IMG/VR virus record: IMGVR_UViG_3300010338_000470
Strand: one strand, 5' to 3'
Length of the DNA stretch: 64,000 bases
Source of the DNA: a virus
Lineage: Duplodnaviria > Caudoviricetes
The notes below the pieces were generated by a model. The model was not told the DNA's origin. It saw only the letters and a program-made list of their open reading frames with translations, and did not search any database. Numbering within the stretch: the stretch's first letter is position 1; each line of letters begins with the position of its first letter. This document shows positions 6,328-63,146 of this stretch, in pieces. The translations under genes and the position numbers were made by a program.

Positions 6328-7728
6328 CTATCGCTCCGTTGACAGACGAGAATTGTTGAAAGCATGGCGCAACTGAAGATACTTGAGGAAGTTCCCGATA
6401 ACAGGAACCTCCACCCGATCCACCGATCCGTCACCCCTCTCGCTGGTGTAGACAGCGAAGTTCTCAGGGTAAGGGGTGGCTACGTGCTCCATGGGGCTGT
6501 GATGGGGAGGGTTGGCTCCCGCCAGCCTCTCGAAGAGATTCAAATCCTCATTGAGATCCCTAACCCCCTCTTGCGTGAGGTAGGAAACCCTGGCGCATCT
6601 GGCAGCAGAAACCTTCTTGCGTACCTCTAGGTCGAGTGTCTCTTCGTCTGGCTGGATGTACGGAGTGTGCCACTCTCCTTCATGTAGCTCCATTGGGGTG
6701 GAGCTTTCTCGGGCTTCCCGAATGAGTTCTGCTACCACTCTGATCTCTGGCTGAGCGAGGGGGGAGCACCTTTGGGAGAAGAAGTTGTTCCACTCCGTTG
6801 AGGAGATGATGACAGTGTGCCACATCCAAGGTTCAAGAATTCTGTTGGCCACCTGCTTGTGAACCCCCAATTCCTCTGAGAGCCGCCTAGATTCCTCCAC
6901 AGCGGCATCCTTGACCTTGATCCAAGCGTACCTGGCCGCTGCCAACTCCTGTCCACTCAGGGCCTCTGAGGCCTGCATGCCGGGCTTGTTGACACCGAAC
7001 TCAACTGGCATAGCTGTATCCGTTTGAACCCTAGCGAGCTGCTTCTTGACGGGGATAGCTCTAGAGCTAGCGGAATTGCGTGAATTGTGCACCACGAACC
7101 CGTTCGCTACAAAGTTGGGGTAGTCGCCCTCCACCGAAAGGTCAAACGTATGCTCTAGCCCGTGAGCCTCGATGGAGTCGATCGATTTGAAGTCGTAGTC
7201 GACAAACCTGTTTAGCTCCGGGTTTCCTCGGAGCGCCACGACCACCTTACTTCCAGCCGTCAGATCGCCAAGTCGTCGCCACCCGTCAGGGGTAAGGAAC
7301 AAGTGATCGATGGATGTTCGAATCGACCTACTTCCCACCTTGACGGTGAAGGTTTCCTTTTCCCCAGAGTAGATCACGTCTGTGATGCGCGTCAGGGATG
7401 GTTCTAGGTCTTCTTCTGAGACCTGTCGAATGGCGATGGATGCCAATCTGTCTCGCATTGATTGATGATTGGCCGTCGGAGCCAGGCTCTCGGCCCAGAC
7501 TGCTCCGTTGTGCCACTTGTCGTAGAGGTACGACAGCTGATACTTTCTGGAAGTGCCATTAGGTGCTTCGGCCCACACCTCAGACTCCCCAGACAAACAG
7601 AAAACTCTGTGGGTGTTCAATTCCGCCAAGACAAATCGATGCATAGTGGCTTGAACCGTTGTCAAGCGAACCCCTGTGGTGGGGTCGATGCTATCCCTGA
7701 CGACGTGAGCTTCGGGTGTTGTCTTCAA
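6328..7728 (-). CDS. thyX: flavin-dependent thymidylate synthase ThyX/Thy1 with intein
   Basis: ELNTHRVF|SRNSASSRAIP, HKQVANRILEP, SAARCARVSY, HHSPMEH. Confidence 0.92.
   Translation of the reverse strand: MKTTPEAHVVRDSIDPTTGVRLTTVQATMHRFVLAELNTHRVFCLSGESEVWAEAPNGTSRKYQLSYLYDKWHNGAVWAESLAPTANHQSMRDRLASIAIRQVSEEDLEPSLTRITDVIYSGEKETFTVKVGSRSIRTSIDHLFLTPDGWRRLGDLTAGSKVVVALRGNPELNRFVDYDFKSIDSIEAHGLEHTFDLSVEGDYPNFVANGFVVHNSRNSASSRAIPVKKQLARVQTDTAMPVEFGVNKPGMQASEALSGQELAAARYAWIKVKDAAVEESRRLSEELGVHKQVANRILEPWMWHTVIISSTEWNNFFSQRCSPLAQPEIRVVAELIREARESSTPMELHEGEWHTPYIQPDEETLDLEVRKKVSAARCARVSYLTQEGVRDLNEDLNLFERLAGANPPHHSPMEHVATPYPENFAVYTSERGDGSVDRVEVPVIGNFLKYLQLRHAFNNSRLSTER
7084..7599 (-). mobile_element. 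mini-intein in ThyX (172 aa, no homing endonuclease)
   Basis: CLSGES...TSIDHLFLTPDGW...TFDLSV...FVVHN|S. Confidence 0.92.
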
Positions 7729-7737
7729 TTTGTTCTC

Positions 7738-9717
7738 CTAAAGGTAAAGGCCTATTGATTGTGACTTCGACGTCAAGCTGCCTGAAAACTCCTCCCCCAT
7801 GGCGAAGAGTTCCGCCAGCATCTTTTCCTCTCTGACTGGGTAGCCCAACCACTCAGAAGCTTCACTCGCTGGAAACGGAGAAAACTCCACATCTGCCAAA
7901 CATCTTCCAGGTCGCTGCAATGCCGGATGAAGCTCCTTGATGGGTTCATTGGTGGTTATGAGCACCATCACCTTGAGCCCCTGACCCAGAAGACCATCCG
8001 TCACGTTCAGCAGTCGACCGAAAGCCTGACCAGACTTGGCGTCAGCGTCAGAGCGAACAAATCGAGTCGCATCCTCCACGACGATGAGCCTCCATCGTTC
8101 CGCTGCCTCCTCTAGAGCATCCTCCACGGCCACCTTGGAGTCCATCGGATCCAGGGCGCTCAATTCATTGAAGTTCACTGAATGAGGAACGTAGGTCAAG
8201 GTTTGAATCAGGTAGTTTGGGTCACCAAAAAAGTTCTCAGGATCTACGATGTAATCAACATCGCACCACGGCTCCCACTCCTTCAATAGCGCCTGGATCG
8301 CATTGGTGTTGTGAGTCACGACATAGTCATCAATCACGAAAAGTTCATCAGGGGCATCCACTTTAATGCATCGAGTCTCCCCATGGCCAACTTCTTCTAT
8401 TGAACTAATGGCACGAAACGGTGCCCTCGTTAACGTTCCAAGAGAACGGCCTCTCTCCGAGAAGTAAGGGTTGAAAGCAAGTTCAATAACCACCCCGTAG
8501 GCAGTAGGGGTGGGCTCCTGATTCACCTCAACGACAAGTGAGGCCACCCCCCCTAAAGATCTAACCAAAGAGATGACATCCTCAGCCACCTCCAAGGAAC
8601 TTGTCTCAAAGAGAGGCAGCCCTTCATCTGTCTTAGCTGGGCGACCATCGAGCAACCCCGCCAGGAGAGCCTTTCTTTGGGCCTCATCCGAAATCAAAAG
8701 GTGCTCAAAGGATGAGTTTTCGGTGAACTGCAAACCAACCTGATATGGAATCTCCCGAAGAGGGACCCCCCCGTATTGAACTGGGAATGGAAGTGGCACA
8801 AACCAACGGAACTCCCCGTCTTCAACTAATGACCCGCTAGCATCTGCGCCTGAAGCCAACTCCTCTGTCGACATGACGCTAAGGTTCTCCGTTGTCGCTA
8901 CGGGGTCAGCTTCCCGAACACCCCATAGGTGATCCCCATCACAGATTGTTTCAGCCCCATCGCTGAACACGACTCGATAAAGGGGCTGGATCCCCCTGTC
9001 GAAAATCTCGGTTACTTCAACCGGGTCGCCATCACTTCCGACAACAAAGTCTCCAACTTCAAGCTCGCCCATGGTACGCCAACCATCGGGAGTGCAAATT
9101 CTTGCTTCCAAGGGCAATCCCTTACCCCCTCCTGGAGGCCCATGCCACAGGATCAGCTTCCCACCAGAATCTGGGGCTGAACGCCCCATCAGGTCCTCCA
9201 GGGATCCCCTAATGGATTTCGGGTAGTTCATGGAGATGTCATCCCAAGTGTTGAACTCCACTTCGCGGCTAGTCGGAATCGGTCCGTAGCTCCCGGCTGT
9301 CCAAAACCTTACCAGAACCTTATCTTCCTCGATCGTTTCCTTCCCTTCTTCTGGGAAGATTTCCGCCAAACGGGGAAGCACCCTAGCCTGAATGTCTTCC
9401 ATCTCTCCGCTAACCCAGAACTGGAAGTTCGTAGAATTGGTTAGTCTGACAGCAAAGACTCCAACAACAGCCTGAACACCATCATTTGATGGCATCTTGA
9501 AGACTCCACCGAATCCATGCCCCTTCTCTGAAGCTGCCATCGTAGGGTTCATCTCCATAATGGCCCTTGTGGCTTCAGTGTGAGAGAGAGTCGACTGATA
9601 GCTGACCCTGAGAAAATCCCTGGAGAACTCCTCCAGAGATGACGTCATGAACTCGTGAGAGACGAGACTCACTGGCGTCATCTGGTCGACAGAAAATGGA
9701 ACTTCGGAGACCTGCAT
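7738..9717 (-). CDS. AAA-family ATPase with intein in the Walker A motif
   Basis: LILWHGPPGGGK|T, LIVVED, LLNVTDGLLGQG, ITTN, ALQRPGRC. Confidence 0.88.
   Translation of the reverse strand: MQVSEVPFSVDQMTPVSLVSHEFMTSSLEEFSRDFLRVSYQSTLSHTEATRAIMEMNPTMAASEKGHGFGGVFKMPSNDGVQAVVGVFAVRLTNSTNFQFWVSGEMEDIQARVLPRLAEIFPEEGKETIEEDKVLVRFWTAGSYGPIPTSREVEFNTWDDISMNYPKSIRGSLEDLMGRSAPDSGGKLILWHGPPGGGKGLPLEARICTPDGWRTMGELEVGDFVVGSDGDPVEVTEIFDRGIQPLYRVVFSDGAETICDGDHLWGVREADPVATTENLSVMSTEELASGADASGSLVEDGEFRWFVPLPFPVQYGGVPLREIPYQVGLQFTENSSFEHLLISDEAQRKALLAGLLDGRPAKTDEGLPLFETSSLEVAEDVISLVRSLGGVASLVVEVNQEPTPTAYGVVIELAFNPYFSERGRSLGTLTRAPFRAISSIEEVGHGETRCIKVDAPDELFVIDDYVVTHNTNAIQALLKEWEPWCDVDYIVDPENFFGDPNYLIQTLTYVPHSVNFNELSALDPMDSKVAVEDALEEAAERWRLIVVEDATRFVRSDADAKSGQAFGRLLNVTDGLLGQGLKVMVLITTNEPIKELHPALQRPGRCLADVEFSPFPASEASEWLGYPVREEKMLAELFAMGEEFSGSLTSKSQSIGLYL
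8308..9120 (-). mobile_element. intein (271 aa) starting with Gly; class 3-type W/C/T signature; degenerate LAGLIDADG
   Basis: GLPLEARIC...CDGDHLW...LLAGLLDG...TRCIKV...VVTHN|T. Confidence 0.85.
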
Positions 9718-60852: not shown

Positions 60853-60936
60853 TGGGGGCGGTGGGATTCGAACCCACAACGGTCTTTCGACGCCGAGTTA
60901 AAAGCTCGGTCCCTTCAGCCATTCGGTCACACCCCC
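60853..60936 (-). tRNA. tRNA with Lys(TTT) anticodon and long variable arm
   Basis: CCGAG-CTTTTAA-CTCGG; variable arm CGTCGAAAGACCGTT. Confidence 0.8.
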
Positions 60937-61385
60937 AGAAGGCCATAAGATCTGGCCCATTTGCGAACAGCATTATCGCTGACGCCGTACTTGCTAGCAA
61001 TAGCCACCCATGACATTGATGCAATCTCCTGCCTGAGAACTTCAGGAGAAGGTCTTTCAACCTTCCGGCTAGCTATCCTAGCACATCTATCTGAACAATA
61101 CAACTTGTTCTTCGTTGCCGTACCACACCGCATGCAATCAACAGTGGGTGCTGAGTGCTTCTCTTTGTGTTGATCGACACTAAGCACTTCTAAGTTGTCC
61201 AGAGCATTGTTTGTGCGATCTTCGTCAATGTGGTGGACATGTTCATCTTCAAGAAGTGGTCGACCGAGTGCTTGCTCCATCAGATATCGAGGATACGACT
61301 GGCTCGTATAAACCCCATCATCACTGATGAGCACGACGATTAGTCGTCCTTCTTTGCCGTTGGAATACGGACCGTAGACCCTCAT
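60927..61385 (-). CDS. HNH homing endonuclease with C-terminal HTH, inside the tRNA array
   Basis: HVHHIDEDRTNNALDNLEVL; CMRC..YCS..C; IASKYGVSDNAVRKW. Confidence 0.88.
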   Translation of the reverse strand: MRVYGPYSNGKEGRLIVVLISDDGVYTSQSYPRYLMEQALGRPLLEDEHVHHIDEDRTNNALDNLEVLSVDQHKEKHSAPTVDCMRCGTATKNKLYCSDRCARIASRKVERPSPEVLRQEIASMSWVAIASKYGVSDNAVRKWARSYGLLGV

Positions 61386-61627
61386 GGTGAAACCTTCTTG
61401 CTGACTGGACGAATCCAGAGCGGAAGAGGAATCCAGATCCTCTCGTGGCCCTTGCCCTTGCCGAAGTCATGTTCGATCTGCACCTTATGTCTGCCCATGC
61501 AGGCGAACTTAGAACGACGTACGTTCCAATAGTGTTTTGCATTCAGAACCTTCTTGTGTTGACCTACCTTCTTATTGGCGGAAGGTACGGCGATGACTGA
61601 GAGCCATCCGGTTCTTTGGATGCGCAT
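61382..61627 (-). CDS. small basic hypothetical protein
   Basis: GAAAGG RBS; ATGA overlap. Confidence 0.55.
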   Translation of the reverse strand: MRIQRTGWLSVIAVPSANKKVGQHKKVLNAKHYWNVRRSKFACMGRHKVQIEHDFGKGKGHERIWIPLPLWIRPVSKKVSP

Positions 61628-61642
61628 GGTACCTTTCTACGA

Positions 61643-61719
61643 TGGCACGGGGGGAAGGAATCGAACCCTCGCTACACTTGGGTCAGAACCAAGCTGGCAA
61701 ACCAGCATGCCACCCCCGT
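61643..61719 (-). tRNA. tRNA-Gln(CTG), atypical D arm
   Basis: CTTGG-TTCTGAC-CCAAG; 1-nt connector. Confidence 0.75.
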
Positions 61720-61720
61720 A

Positions 61721-61834
61721 TGGTGGTTCCGGCCGGAATCGAACCGGCAACCCCCGTCGGGGCGACATCCATGTATCTGACTACAGAAATCGGGTGCTAG
61801 GGCGGGCTTTCCCCCGCAATCCTTTCGGACCACC
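61721..61834 (-). ncRNA. about 110-nt tRNA-like RNA (T arm and ACCA end, non-cloverleaf interior)
   Basis: GCCGGTTCGATTCCGGC-CGGAACCACCA; interior hairpins GCGGG/CCCGC, TCTG/CAGA, CCCC/GGGG. Confidence 0.6.
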
Positions 61835-61839
61835 CGTAG

Positions 61840-61913
61840 TGGGCATACTCGGATTCGAACCGAGAATCCTGGAAGTTTGAGTTCCGGTGCTTTGCCAGTT
61901 AGCACATATGCCC
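61840..61913 (-). tRNA. tRNA with CAA (Leu) anticodon on a short-variable-loop body
   Basis: GGAA-CTCAAAC-TTCC; 5-nt variable loop. Confidence 0.75.
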
Positions 61914-62009: not shown

Positions 62010-62096
62010 TGGTGCCGGAGGAGGGATTCGAACCCCCTAAGCTCAAAAGCAACTGATTTACAGTCAGCCCCAACTCACCGTCGTTGGCGCTCCGGC
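62010..62096 (-). tRNA. tRNA-Tyr(GTA)
   Basis: GCTGA-CTGTAAA-TCAGT; long variable arm; CCA. Confidence 0.9.
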
Positions 62097-62107
62097 GTGG
62101 AGCGATA

Positions 62108-62410
62108 GGTACGATGGTGTGCCACATCCATGGTTCGATGTAGCGGTTAGCCCACTGCTTGTGCAGACCCAAAGGCTTGCCCTTGTCGTCAAGCGGGCCG
62201 AGCTGTGATAGCTCTCGCACACCCTCAACGCAGGCATCCCTCATGCGCAGGATGATCTCCTCAGCCTTGGCACGATCCTCGTCGGTCATGGGCGTTACCG
62301 CCTGCATGCCCGGTTGGTTATACCTATAGTCCACCGGCAAGGCTGGATCATCTTCGATCCTGCTTAGCTGCTTCCACGTTGGGATGGCTCGACTAGATGC
62401 CGAGTTTCGA
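62108..62410 (-). pseudogene. internal fragment of a second, divergent thyX
   Basis: RNSASSRAIP...NQPGMQA...LGLHKQWANRYIEPWMWHTIV aligns with the C-extein of thyX at 6328-7083. Confidence 0.88.
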
Positions 62411-62441
62411 AGCCACTCTGACCAGACTGAGTTACACCCCC
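62409..62441 (-). pseudogene. tRNA 5' half fused to the thyX fragment
   Basis: GGGGGTGTAACTCAGTCTGGTCAGAGTGGCTTC: acceptor 5' strand, D arm and first anticodon strand. Confidence 0.75.
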
Positions 62442-62442
62442 G

Positions 62443-62517
62443 TGGCGCTCTATCCGGGACTCGAACCCGATTCTCAAGCTTGACAAGCTTGGGTGGTAAC
62501 CCATACACCAATAGAGC
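62443..62517 (-). tRNA. tRNA-Asp(GTC)
   Basis: CAAGC-TTGTCAA-GCTTG; G73; CCA. Confidence 0.9.
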
Positions 62518-62780: not shown

Positions 62781-63146
62781 CTAGCCTTTCCACAAGAAGT
62801 CGGGGAAGGGCTTGAAGGTCTTGTCTTCTAAGCTATCTAGACTCCAGATCCCTTGTGGTGGGGTTAGACCCGTTCGATTGAGGCGCTCATTGACTGCCTC
62901 ATTGAATGCCTCCTTGTTCCAGTAGACACCGCTGTCGCCAGAGTACGAAAACTCTGACAGACGTATGTGTTGACCGGGGTGAGGAACAGCTTCTTCAAGG
63001 GAAGCCCTCTGGTCGAACTTGAACTTGAGTTCAATTGTCCCGGAGAGATCCACGGCTGTCACAGCTTGAGTCCCATCCTCCAAAGTTTCAACCTTCGTCA
63101 CCCAGAGGGTGCCGGGAGCGTATACCATCGTAGACATGGGGGGCAT
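62781..63146 (-). CDS. hypothetical protein
   Basis: ORF MPPMSTMVYAPG... downstream of tRNA-Asn. Confidence 0.6.
   Translation of the reverse strand: MPPMSTMVYAPGTLWVTKVETLEDGTQAVTAVDLSGTIELKFKFDQRASLEEAVPHPGQHIRLSEFSYSGDSGVYWNKEAFNEAVNERLNRTGLTPPQGIWSLDSLEDKTFKPFPDFLWKG

Follow-up and report, generated by a model that had tools for sequence, protein, structure and literature searches.

A thyX remnant that begins at an intein insertion site and is fused to part of a tRNA gene in the RNA island of an uncultured phage

How did a piece of a thymidylate synthase gene come to lie among the tRNA genes of a phage, fused to part of one of them, and what is to be made of the fact that it begins almost exactly where the phage's own thyX is interrupted by an intein? 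The locus is in a 64,000-nt stretch of DNA, called the window below (G+C 53.8%), which is part of an uncultured phage genome of about 149 kb; identical or near-identical contigs of 50-149 kb are present in the ENA, JGI and Logan assemblies. The minus strand of the window carries a long RNA island, in which ARAGORN finds 35 tRNAs and a tmRNA between 46974 and 63954. Approximately half of this island is tRNA sequence, and further tRNAs, including Trp and a second Tyr (GTA, L007 8199-8286), lie upstream in loci that extend past the window end. Just past that end there is also an 1814-aa gene (L007 1-4430) with faint or weak Hint, intein-splicing and LAGLIDADG matches, which reads as another intein-bearing gene. 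The AAA ATPase/DUF5925 gene adjoining the resident thyX (7738-9717, minus strand) has an apparent intein of its own after the P-loop. The apparent boundaries are …GGGKGLPLEARI/CTPDGW…VVTHN/T (slashes mark the splice points); Pfam gave only DUF5925 and AAA for this gene.

Read along the minus strand, the locus begins with an intact tRNA-Asp(GTC) at 62443-62517 (ARAGORN; Rfam tRNA, 52.3 bits), which runs from 62517 to 62443 and has a CCA end. It is followed by a single C at 62442, the 5' part of a tRNA, the thyX piece, a 12-nt tail, a single C at 62097 and then an intact tRNA-Tyr(GTA) with a long variable arm (62010-62096, minus strand). The latter was not called by ARAGORN, though at 37.2 bits it is above the Rfam gathering score of 29. 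The thyX remnant occupies 62110-62409 (minus strand) and consists of 100 in-frame codons, RNSASSRAIP...EPWMWHTIV, whose translation is free of stops and frameshifts. They correspond to residues 61-160, approximately, of a ThyX of about 283 aa, so that some 60 N-terminal and 123 C-terminal residues are missing. Compared with thyX relatives, the homology starts exactly at 62409 and stops exactly at 62110.

The 32 nt upstream of the remnant (GGGGGTGTAACTCAGTCTGGTCAGAGTGGCTT, 62410-62441, minus strand) start 1 nt after the CCA of tRNA-Asp. As read from the sequence, they contain an acceptor strand (GGGGGTG), TA with U8, a 4-bp D stem (ACTC/GAGT) and the GG of the D loop (G18 G19), and they end with GGCTT, ie 4-5 nt of an anticodon stem. 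Positions 1-31 are about 90% identical to annotated phage tRNA genes (Phe, Gly, Asn). Both the features and the identity bear out the original description of the locus as a fusion to a tRNA 5' half that ends in the anticodon stem. The anticodon loop, the T arm and a matching 3' acceptor are absent, there is no ARAGORN or Rfam (RF00005) call for a full cloverleaf at this place, and no 3' half matching the 5' half was found in the window or in related loci. The isolated half, at 34 nt too short for the model, gave no match in Rfam.

Downstream of the remnant, the 12-nt tail (CCTATCGCTCCA, 62098-62109, minus strand) resembles the 3' end of the tRNA-Gly(TCC) of the same array (...GTCGCTCCA) and is followed by the spacer C at 62097. 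Judged by these letters, it is plausibly what is left of a second destroyed tRNA, namely its last 12 nt (acceptor 3' strand, discriminator and CCA), since it has the form ...CGC-T-CCA, like the Gly and Thr tRNAs of the array, and stands at the 1-nt spacing typical of the array. Its acceptor, CTATCGC, cannot pair with the GGGGGTG of the tRNA half, and at least two tRNA genes would therefore have been damaged. The initial suggestion that the tail is the 3' end of a different tRNA is thus plausible from its resemblance, spacing and non-pairing acceptor. Reading the 12 nt as frameshifted thyX was also tried, and was rejected as it gave no convincing alignment.

The overlap at either junction is at most 1-2 nt, and there are no homology arms. 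Microhomology between the tRNA side and the codons upstream in thyX (GGCTT, CAGAGTG) was not above that of shuffled sequences (p 0.07-0.98). Such short overlaps fit an end-joined piece of filler DNA and an in-place deletion alike.

The arrangement is widespread and nearly invariant. Across 13 studies that sampled activated sludge, wastewater and freshwater and are dated 2016-2023, 20 public runs contain an 801-nt stretch spanning both junctions. All eight loci that were fetched have an identical tRNA half and tail, and the same arrangement is found in ENA, JGI and Logan contigs of 50-149 kb produced by different assemblers. The 96-aa ORF that is called on the remnant (P0121) has an exact copy on 73 contigs, and the neighbouring ORF (62781-63146) is on 72. 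Neither an insert-free variant of the phage nor an empty-site allele was seen among all the loci and runs examined. Searches in IMG/VR, in JGI and with proteins gave no diverged relative of the locus, and 1.7 kb around it, compared with 50,697 phage records by near and distant DNA searches, gave scattered tRNA matches only. No diverged homologue of the neighbouring ORF was found, and hence no syntenic relative. In run X8, a diverged contig of 15.8 kb has matches to 62010-62037 and 62248-62270 with the same spacing as in the window; the full-length thyX relatives have no tRNA-like stretch that matches.

The piece had been described as homologous to, and divergent from, the resident thyX, and this was confirmed. 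It aligns with 7080-6808 at 48% identity (tblastn, E 3e-28), and a quick maximum-likelihood tree places it in another clade, as sister to P0001 (SH-aLRT 97), with the resident exteins in a different group. P0001 is an intein-less ThyX of 283 aa from Logan contigs and is the nearest relative found, with 89% amino acid and approximately 78-83% nucleotide identity over the 100 codons; some twenty other ThyX proteins are 55-69% identical to the remnant. The remnant matches PHROG 85 (thymidylate synthase) at E 8.7e-8. Alone it has no match in Pfam; P0001 matches PF02511 at E 1.9e-10. The GPLDDKGKP segment, singled out earlier as an extra, is indeed absent from the resident thyX, but it is no oddity: a GP(L/I)D..G.P insert is present in all the close relatives, P0001-P0020. 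Between the remnant and P0001, pN is 0.083 and pS 0.69. Synonymous sites are thus near saturation, so that P0001 is a relative of the source and not the source itself, and the search for a donor, which ended at this protein, identified none. The low pN relative to pS indicates that for most of its history the sequence was a working gene. In the quick tree the branch of the remnant (0.15) is about twice as long as that of P0001 (0.067).

Phage C5 DNA methyltransferases (L001-L003, L015-L017) contain ENVRE..SWGPLDDKGKP, which has residues in common with the ThyX insert VRELSQLGPLDDKGKP. They were the only matches when IMG/VR and JGI were scanned with the remnant. The shared WGPLDDKGKP was considered as a sign of a chimera and rejected; since the whole P0001 clade of ThyX carries the insert, the match is probably due to chance.

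The resident thyX (6328-7728, minus strand) bears its intein between ...NTHRVF and SRNSASS. The intein is 172 aa long (CLSGES...VVHN; 7084-7599, minus strand), and is followed by Ser+1 at 7081-7083 and then by RNSASS. It has a Pfam splicing domain and no endonuclease, ie it is a mini form. The first ThyX codon of the remnant is the Arg right after Ser+1, so the piece does start one codon after the insertion point, as had been noticed from the letters, and the DNA junction lies 3-4 nt from that point. The remnant itself holds no intein sequence. For a random fragment of a gene of about 850 nt, one end or the other would fall within 4 nt of the intein site with a probability of approximately 2%, by our own calculation and for a coincidence that was noticed after the fact.

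Inteins are known from two examples of ThyX-like proteins in cluster C1 mycobacteriophages (Kelley et al. 2016, PMC5050341). Among the ThyX proteins compared here, P0109 has an intein homologous to the resident one at the same VVHN/SRN junction, a site that breaks a conserved ThyX motif. Precisely at a gap in the resident mini-intein, the P0109 intein has some 80 additional residues. In these the H-N-H residues are visible, and against the Pfam HNH model they score 20.8 bits (E 4.2e-4), just under the cut-off of 21.4. The thyX-intein endonuclease on which the sequence-only reading relied may be represented by the HNH-like domain of a homologous intein at the same site, but not by the resident intein, which is now without an endonuclease domain.

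The neighbourhoods of full-length thyX genes in relatives bear on where the lost copy may have been. In the phages of P0001, P0003 and P0009, thyX leads into a tRNA/tmRNA island of the same orientation and precedes its first tRNA by 945 nt (P0001, L006), 55 nt (P0003, L020) and 2.6 kb (P0009, L024). L006 shares several tRNAs with the window and is 72.5% identical over about 530 nt to a spacer of its RNA island; the other genes of the P0001 genome have no detectable match in the window. A different position is seen for P0002 (L019), which groups with the clade of the remnant and whose thyX adjoins a ribonucleotide reductase gene. L019 is collinear with the replication module of the window (approximately 24000-47500) at 40-64% amino acid identity, over NT5C, SSB, DnaB, RNase T, class II RNR and RecA. 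ThyX of the remnant type is thus common in the wider phage group, which makes the label foreign uncertain. The RNR gene of the window is much longer than that of L019 and may carry inserts.

In the P0003 and P0009 phages, a weak match to Ku and a DNA ligase lie a few genes upstream of thyX (L020 1452-2261 and 3436-4167; L024 1468-2277 and 3798-4601). They belong to a block conserved in this clade, of RuvB-like, Ku, ligase, MoxR, VWA and DUF6744 genes, thyX and the tRNA/tmRNA island. No Ku gene was found in the window. None of the relatives found has a full thyX between tRNA-Asp and tRNA-Tyr, or has the ancestral tRNAs intact, and the comparison of relatives that had been proposed for recovering the intact tRNAs was without success. 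A tRNA-like element at 61721-61831 (minus strand) has a perfect T arm, an ACCA end, an interior of about 66 nt and a weak tmRNA-model match (15.6 bits); over 61786-61840 it has 76% identity with a spacer between tRNAs of the P0001 phage (L006 6236-6302).

The array that surrounds the remnant is still changing. A free-standing HNH endonuclease gene lies within it at 60927-61385 (minus strand; Pfam HNH_3, E 1.1e-7; PHROG HNH, E 7e-25), 0.7 kb downstream of the remnant, and is partly deleted in some strains. A 615-nt deletion (61058-61672), present in L009, L010 and the phage of run X8, joins the first 47 nt of a tRNA-Gln(CTG) to the last 43 or so codons of the HNH gene. A 375-nt deletion (61280-61654) is present in run X11, where it coexists with the undeleted form. 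The two deletions are independent, both with endpoints inside the tRNA-Gln and the HNH gene, and other indels and replacements separate strains that are otherwise more than 99% identical. Erosion that fuses parts of tRNAs to gene fragments is therefore going on in this phage population now. Strain-specific replacements and insertions are also seen elsewhere in the tRNA island of L007 (7603-7738, 12122-12951, 13331-13880 and 16704-17010); among them are an additional ORF of 176 aa and duplicates of tRNA-Gln and tRNA-Thr genes. A link between the HNH gene and the thyX scar would be conjecture, and its product resembles the P0109 intein HNH only in the generic motif (30% over 69 aa).

The remnant is most likely a non-functional scar of illegitimate joining. 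An endonuclease is probably involved in one way or another, though this is well short of firm. Of the particular courses of events considered, the one that we tentatively favour, at less than even confidence, is that a second thyX was lost in place. An intein-less thyX of the P0001 clade would once have stood inside the RNA island or at its head, in the orientation of the tRNAs, as in the closest ThyX relatives, in a lineage that also carried the intein-containing thyX now at 6328-7728. An HNH endonuclease of the intein family, targeting ...HR.F/SRNSASS..., may have cut the empty site of the intein-less copy. At about 48% protein identity in this region the two genes have diverged too far for homing, and end joining would for that reason have sealed the break, at the cost of the 5' third of thyX and of the upstream DNA up to the anticodon stem of a tRNA. 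A second deletion would then have taken thyX from the present end of the remnant onwards, and with it all but the last 12 nt of another tRNA.

That the copy eroded in place is at least as likely as that it was captured from elsewhere. What keeps the in-place version alive is the position of thyX at the island head in relatives, the co-orientation of the remnant with the tRNAs and the deletions observed in present-day strains. With no relative that has thyX at exactly this position, it proceeds by analogy. It also takes two deletions, as against a single repair event for capture, the resident intein now has no endonuclease, and the position at which an HNH intein would cleave this site is conjecture.

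A simpler course would do without any endonuclease. Ordinary deletions could have trimmed a second thyX, or else a joint formed by recombination with an RNA-island module of the P0001 kind, and one endpoint would then fall at the intein site by chance. The demonstrable instability of the array fits this well, with its two independent deletions and its indels and replacements between near-identical strains, and as about half of the island is tRNA, endpoints inside tRNAs are expected. The intein coincidence is, moreover, a single observation made post hoc. Nevertheless we consider this course unlikely, given the chance of about 2% for either end to fall so close to a predefined site, a genome rich in inteins and HNH genes, and the homologous intein at the same site with its HNH-like domain.

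Rated as doubtful, and a shade below the endonuclease-free course, is a capture of the kind first proposed for this locus, in which an intein endonuclease cut the thyX of a P0001-like co-infecting phage and a piece of about 300 bp was taken up as filler in a break in the tRNA array, one tRNA losing its 3' part in the repair and the next the greater part of its sequence. It has the merit that a single repair event accounts for both junctions and both tRNA remnants, and it too explains the start at the intein site. The clade of the remnant differs from that of the resident thyX, and the remaining genes of the P0001 genome are unmatched in the window; both would be expected of a piece from another phage. 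End joining may be present in such infections, to go by the weak Ku match and the ligase beside thyX in the P0003 and P0009 phages, and the very short junction overlaps are as expected for it. However, the co-orientation with the tRNAs and the position of thyX at the head of tRNA islands in relatives would both have to be coincidences. No actual donor has been identified, synonymous sites relative to P0001 being near saturation, and no insert-free variant was seen. To our knowledge, the capture of free fragments is also poorly documented in phage genomes. Capture of a free foreign end from another phage was thus not established, the island thyX of the closest relatives and the strain deletions favouring the alternatives. 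A more elaborate version, to which we give a low probability, has both partners of the joint produced by endonuclease cuts during an actinophage infection, one by the intein HNH on an empty-site thyX and the other by an array-borne endonuclease on a tRNA anticodon stem, followed by joining of the Ku/ligase type.

Could the remnant be functional, as a ThyX-derived peptide, a homing-endonuclease decoy or a structured spacer RNA of the island? The frame is open across 100 codons, and all the family-invariant ThyX residues of this stretch are kept with no stop or indel, only W12 and T39 being atypical. The element is fixed in every strain sampled, and the two equally spaced matches in the diverged X8 contig hint that it is retained in a more distant lineage. 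The polymorphisms between strains are three synonymous to two non-synonymous. Against this, the tetrameric active site of ThyX needs both the RHRxxxxxxxS region and the C-terminal half of the protein. The remnant is without HR.FS, the N-terminal part of that motif, and without everything past WHT(I/V)V. It cannot form the ThyX fold and is not a complete Thy1 domain. No ORF start was found at the junction; the only ATG-started ORF (96 aa, from MTDEDR) begins inside the remnant and runs on through tRNA-Tyr. Lacking the upstream half of the endonuclease target, the remnant would be a poor decoy, and nothing supports the earlier idea of a decoy or capture mechanism. The RNA of the insert folds no better than shuffled sequences (z -0.84), and scans for promoters and terminators gave nothing above shuffles. 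The polymorphisms are far too few for selection to be shown; even together with the branch lengths they reveal neither decay nor constraint, and neutral decay is not demonstrated by them. Function of any of these kinds is very improbable. We take the remnant to be a fairly young pseudogene with no present role, which may persist because it is short, is harmlessly transcribed with the array and has become fixed in the population.

Finally, an assembly chimera, ie junctions absent from any real molecule, which came into question only because tRNA repeats can mislead assemblers, is excluded for practical purposes by independent assemblies from at least four studies, whose contigs (34,253, 24,950, 3,715 and 607 nt) bridge both junctions with 0-5 differences over 0.6-1.7 kb.

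If an endonuclease did give rise to the remnant, it would be a rare natural footprint of failed intein homing, in which the target of an intein endonuclease, too diverged for repair from the intein allele, ended up destroyed and attached to unrelated DNA. A cut-site prediction for an uncharacterised family of HNH inteins in ThyX would also follow. Should both partners have been cut, the locus would record an endonuclease conflict between co-infecting or co-resident elements and show that failed homing can create new gene junctions in phage genomes. Otherwise it is an ordinary pseudogene remnant that illustrates the instability of large phage tRNA islands. In either case there is a warning for annotation, as the 96-aa ORF called on 73 contigs is not a gene.

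In its clade insert and invariant residues the remnant is like the actinophage-like ThyX proteins of metagenomes (Thy1, PF02511; PHROG 85), but with only residues 61-160 or so of about 283, and with no start, it is a gene fragment and not a gene. With the ThyX inteins, the resident one and that of P0109, it shares their common insertion point, 3 nt downstream of which it begins; it would be a by-product of failed homing rather than an intein allele. A homing endonuclease that acts in a phage tRNA gene cluster is known in T4, where it is SegB (PMC2330249), and SegB-driven segmental amplification of tRNA-Tyr has been described (PMC13096335). Here, too, a free-standing endonuclease gene lies in a rearranged tRNA array with broken tRNA genes. 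However, SegB is a GIY-YIG enzyme that acts through homologous co-conversion and amplification, whereas the present joints are non-homologous and the connection of the array HNH gene with a break is conjectural. In yeast, HO and I-SceI experiments have shown that filler DNA can be captured by end joining at endonuclease-induced double-strand breaks. The likeness lies in the short foreign piece, the little or no microhomology and the flanking loss, and the difference in that the yeast events are eukaryotic and experimental; we know of no described case of natural filler-DNA capture in a phage. Gene remnants left by illegitimate recombination are ordinary, and endonuclease genes in phage tRNA clusters and inteins in ThyX are already known. 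What is unusual in this single case, with its putative mechanism, is that the start of the remnant lies at an intein homing site and that half a tRNA is fused to it.
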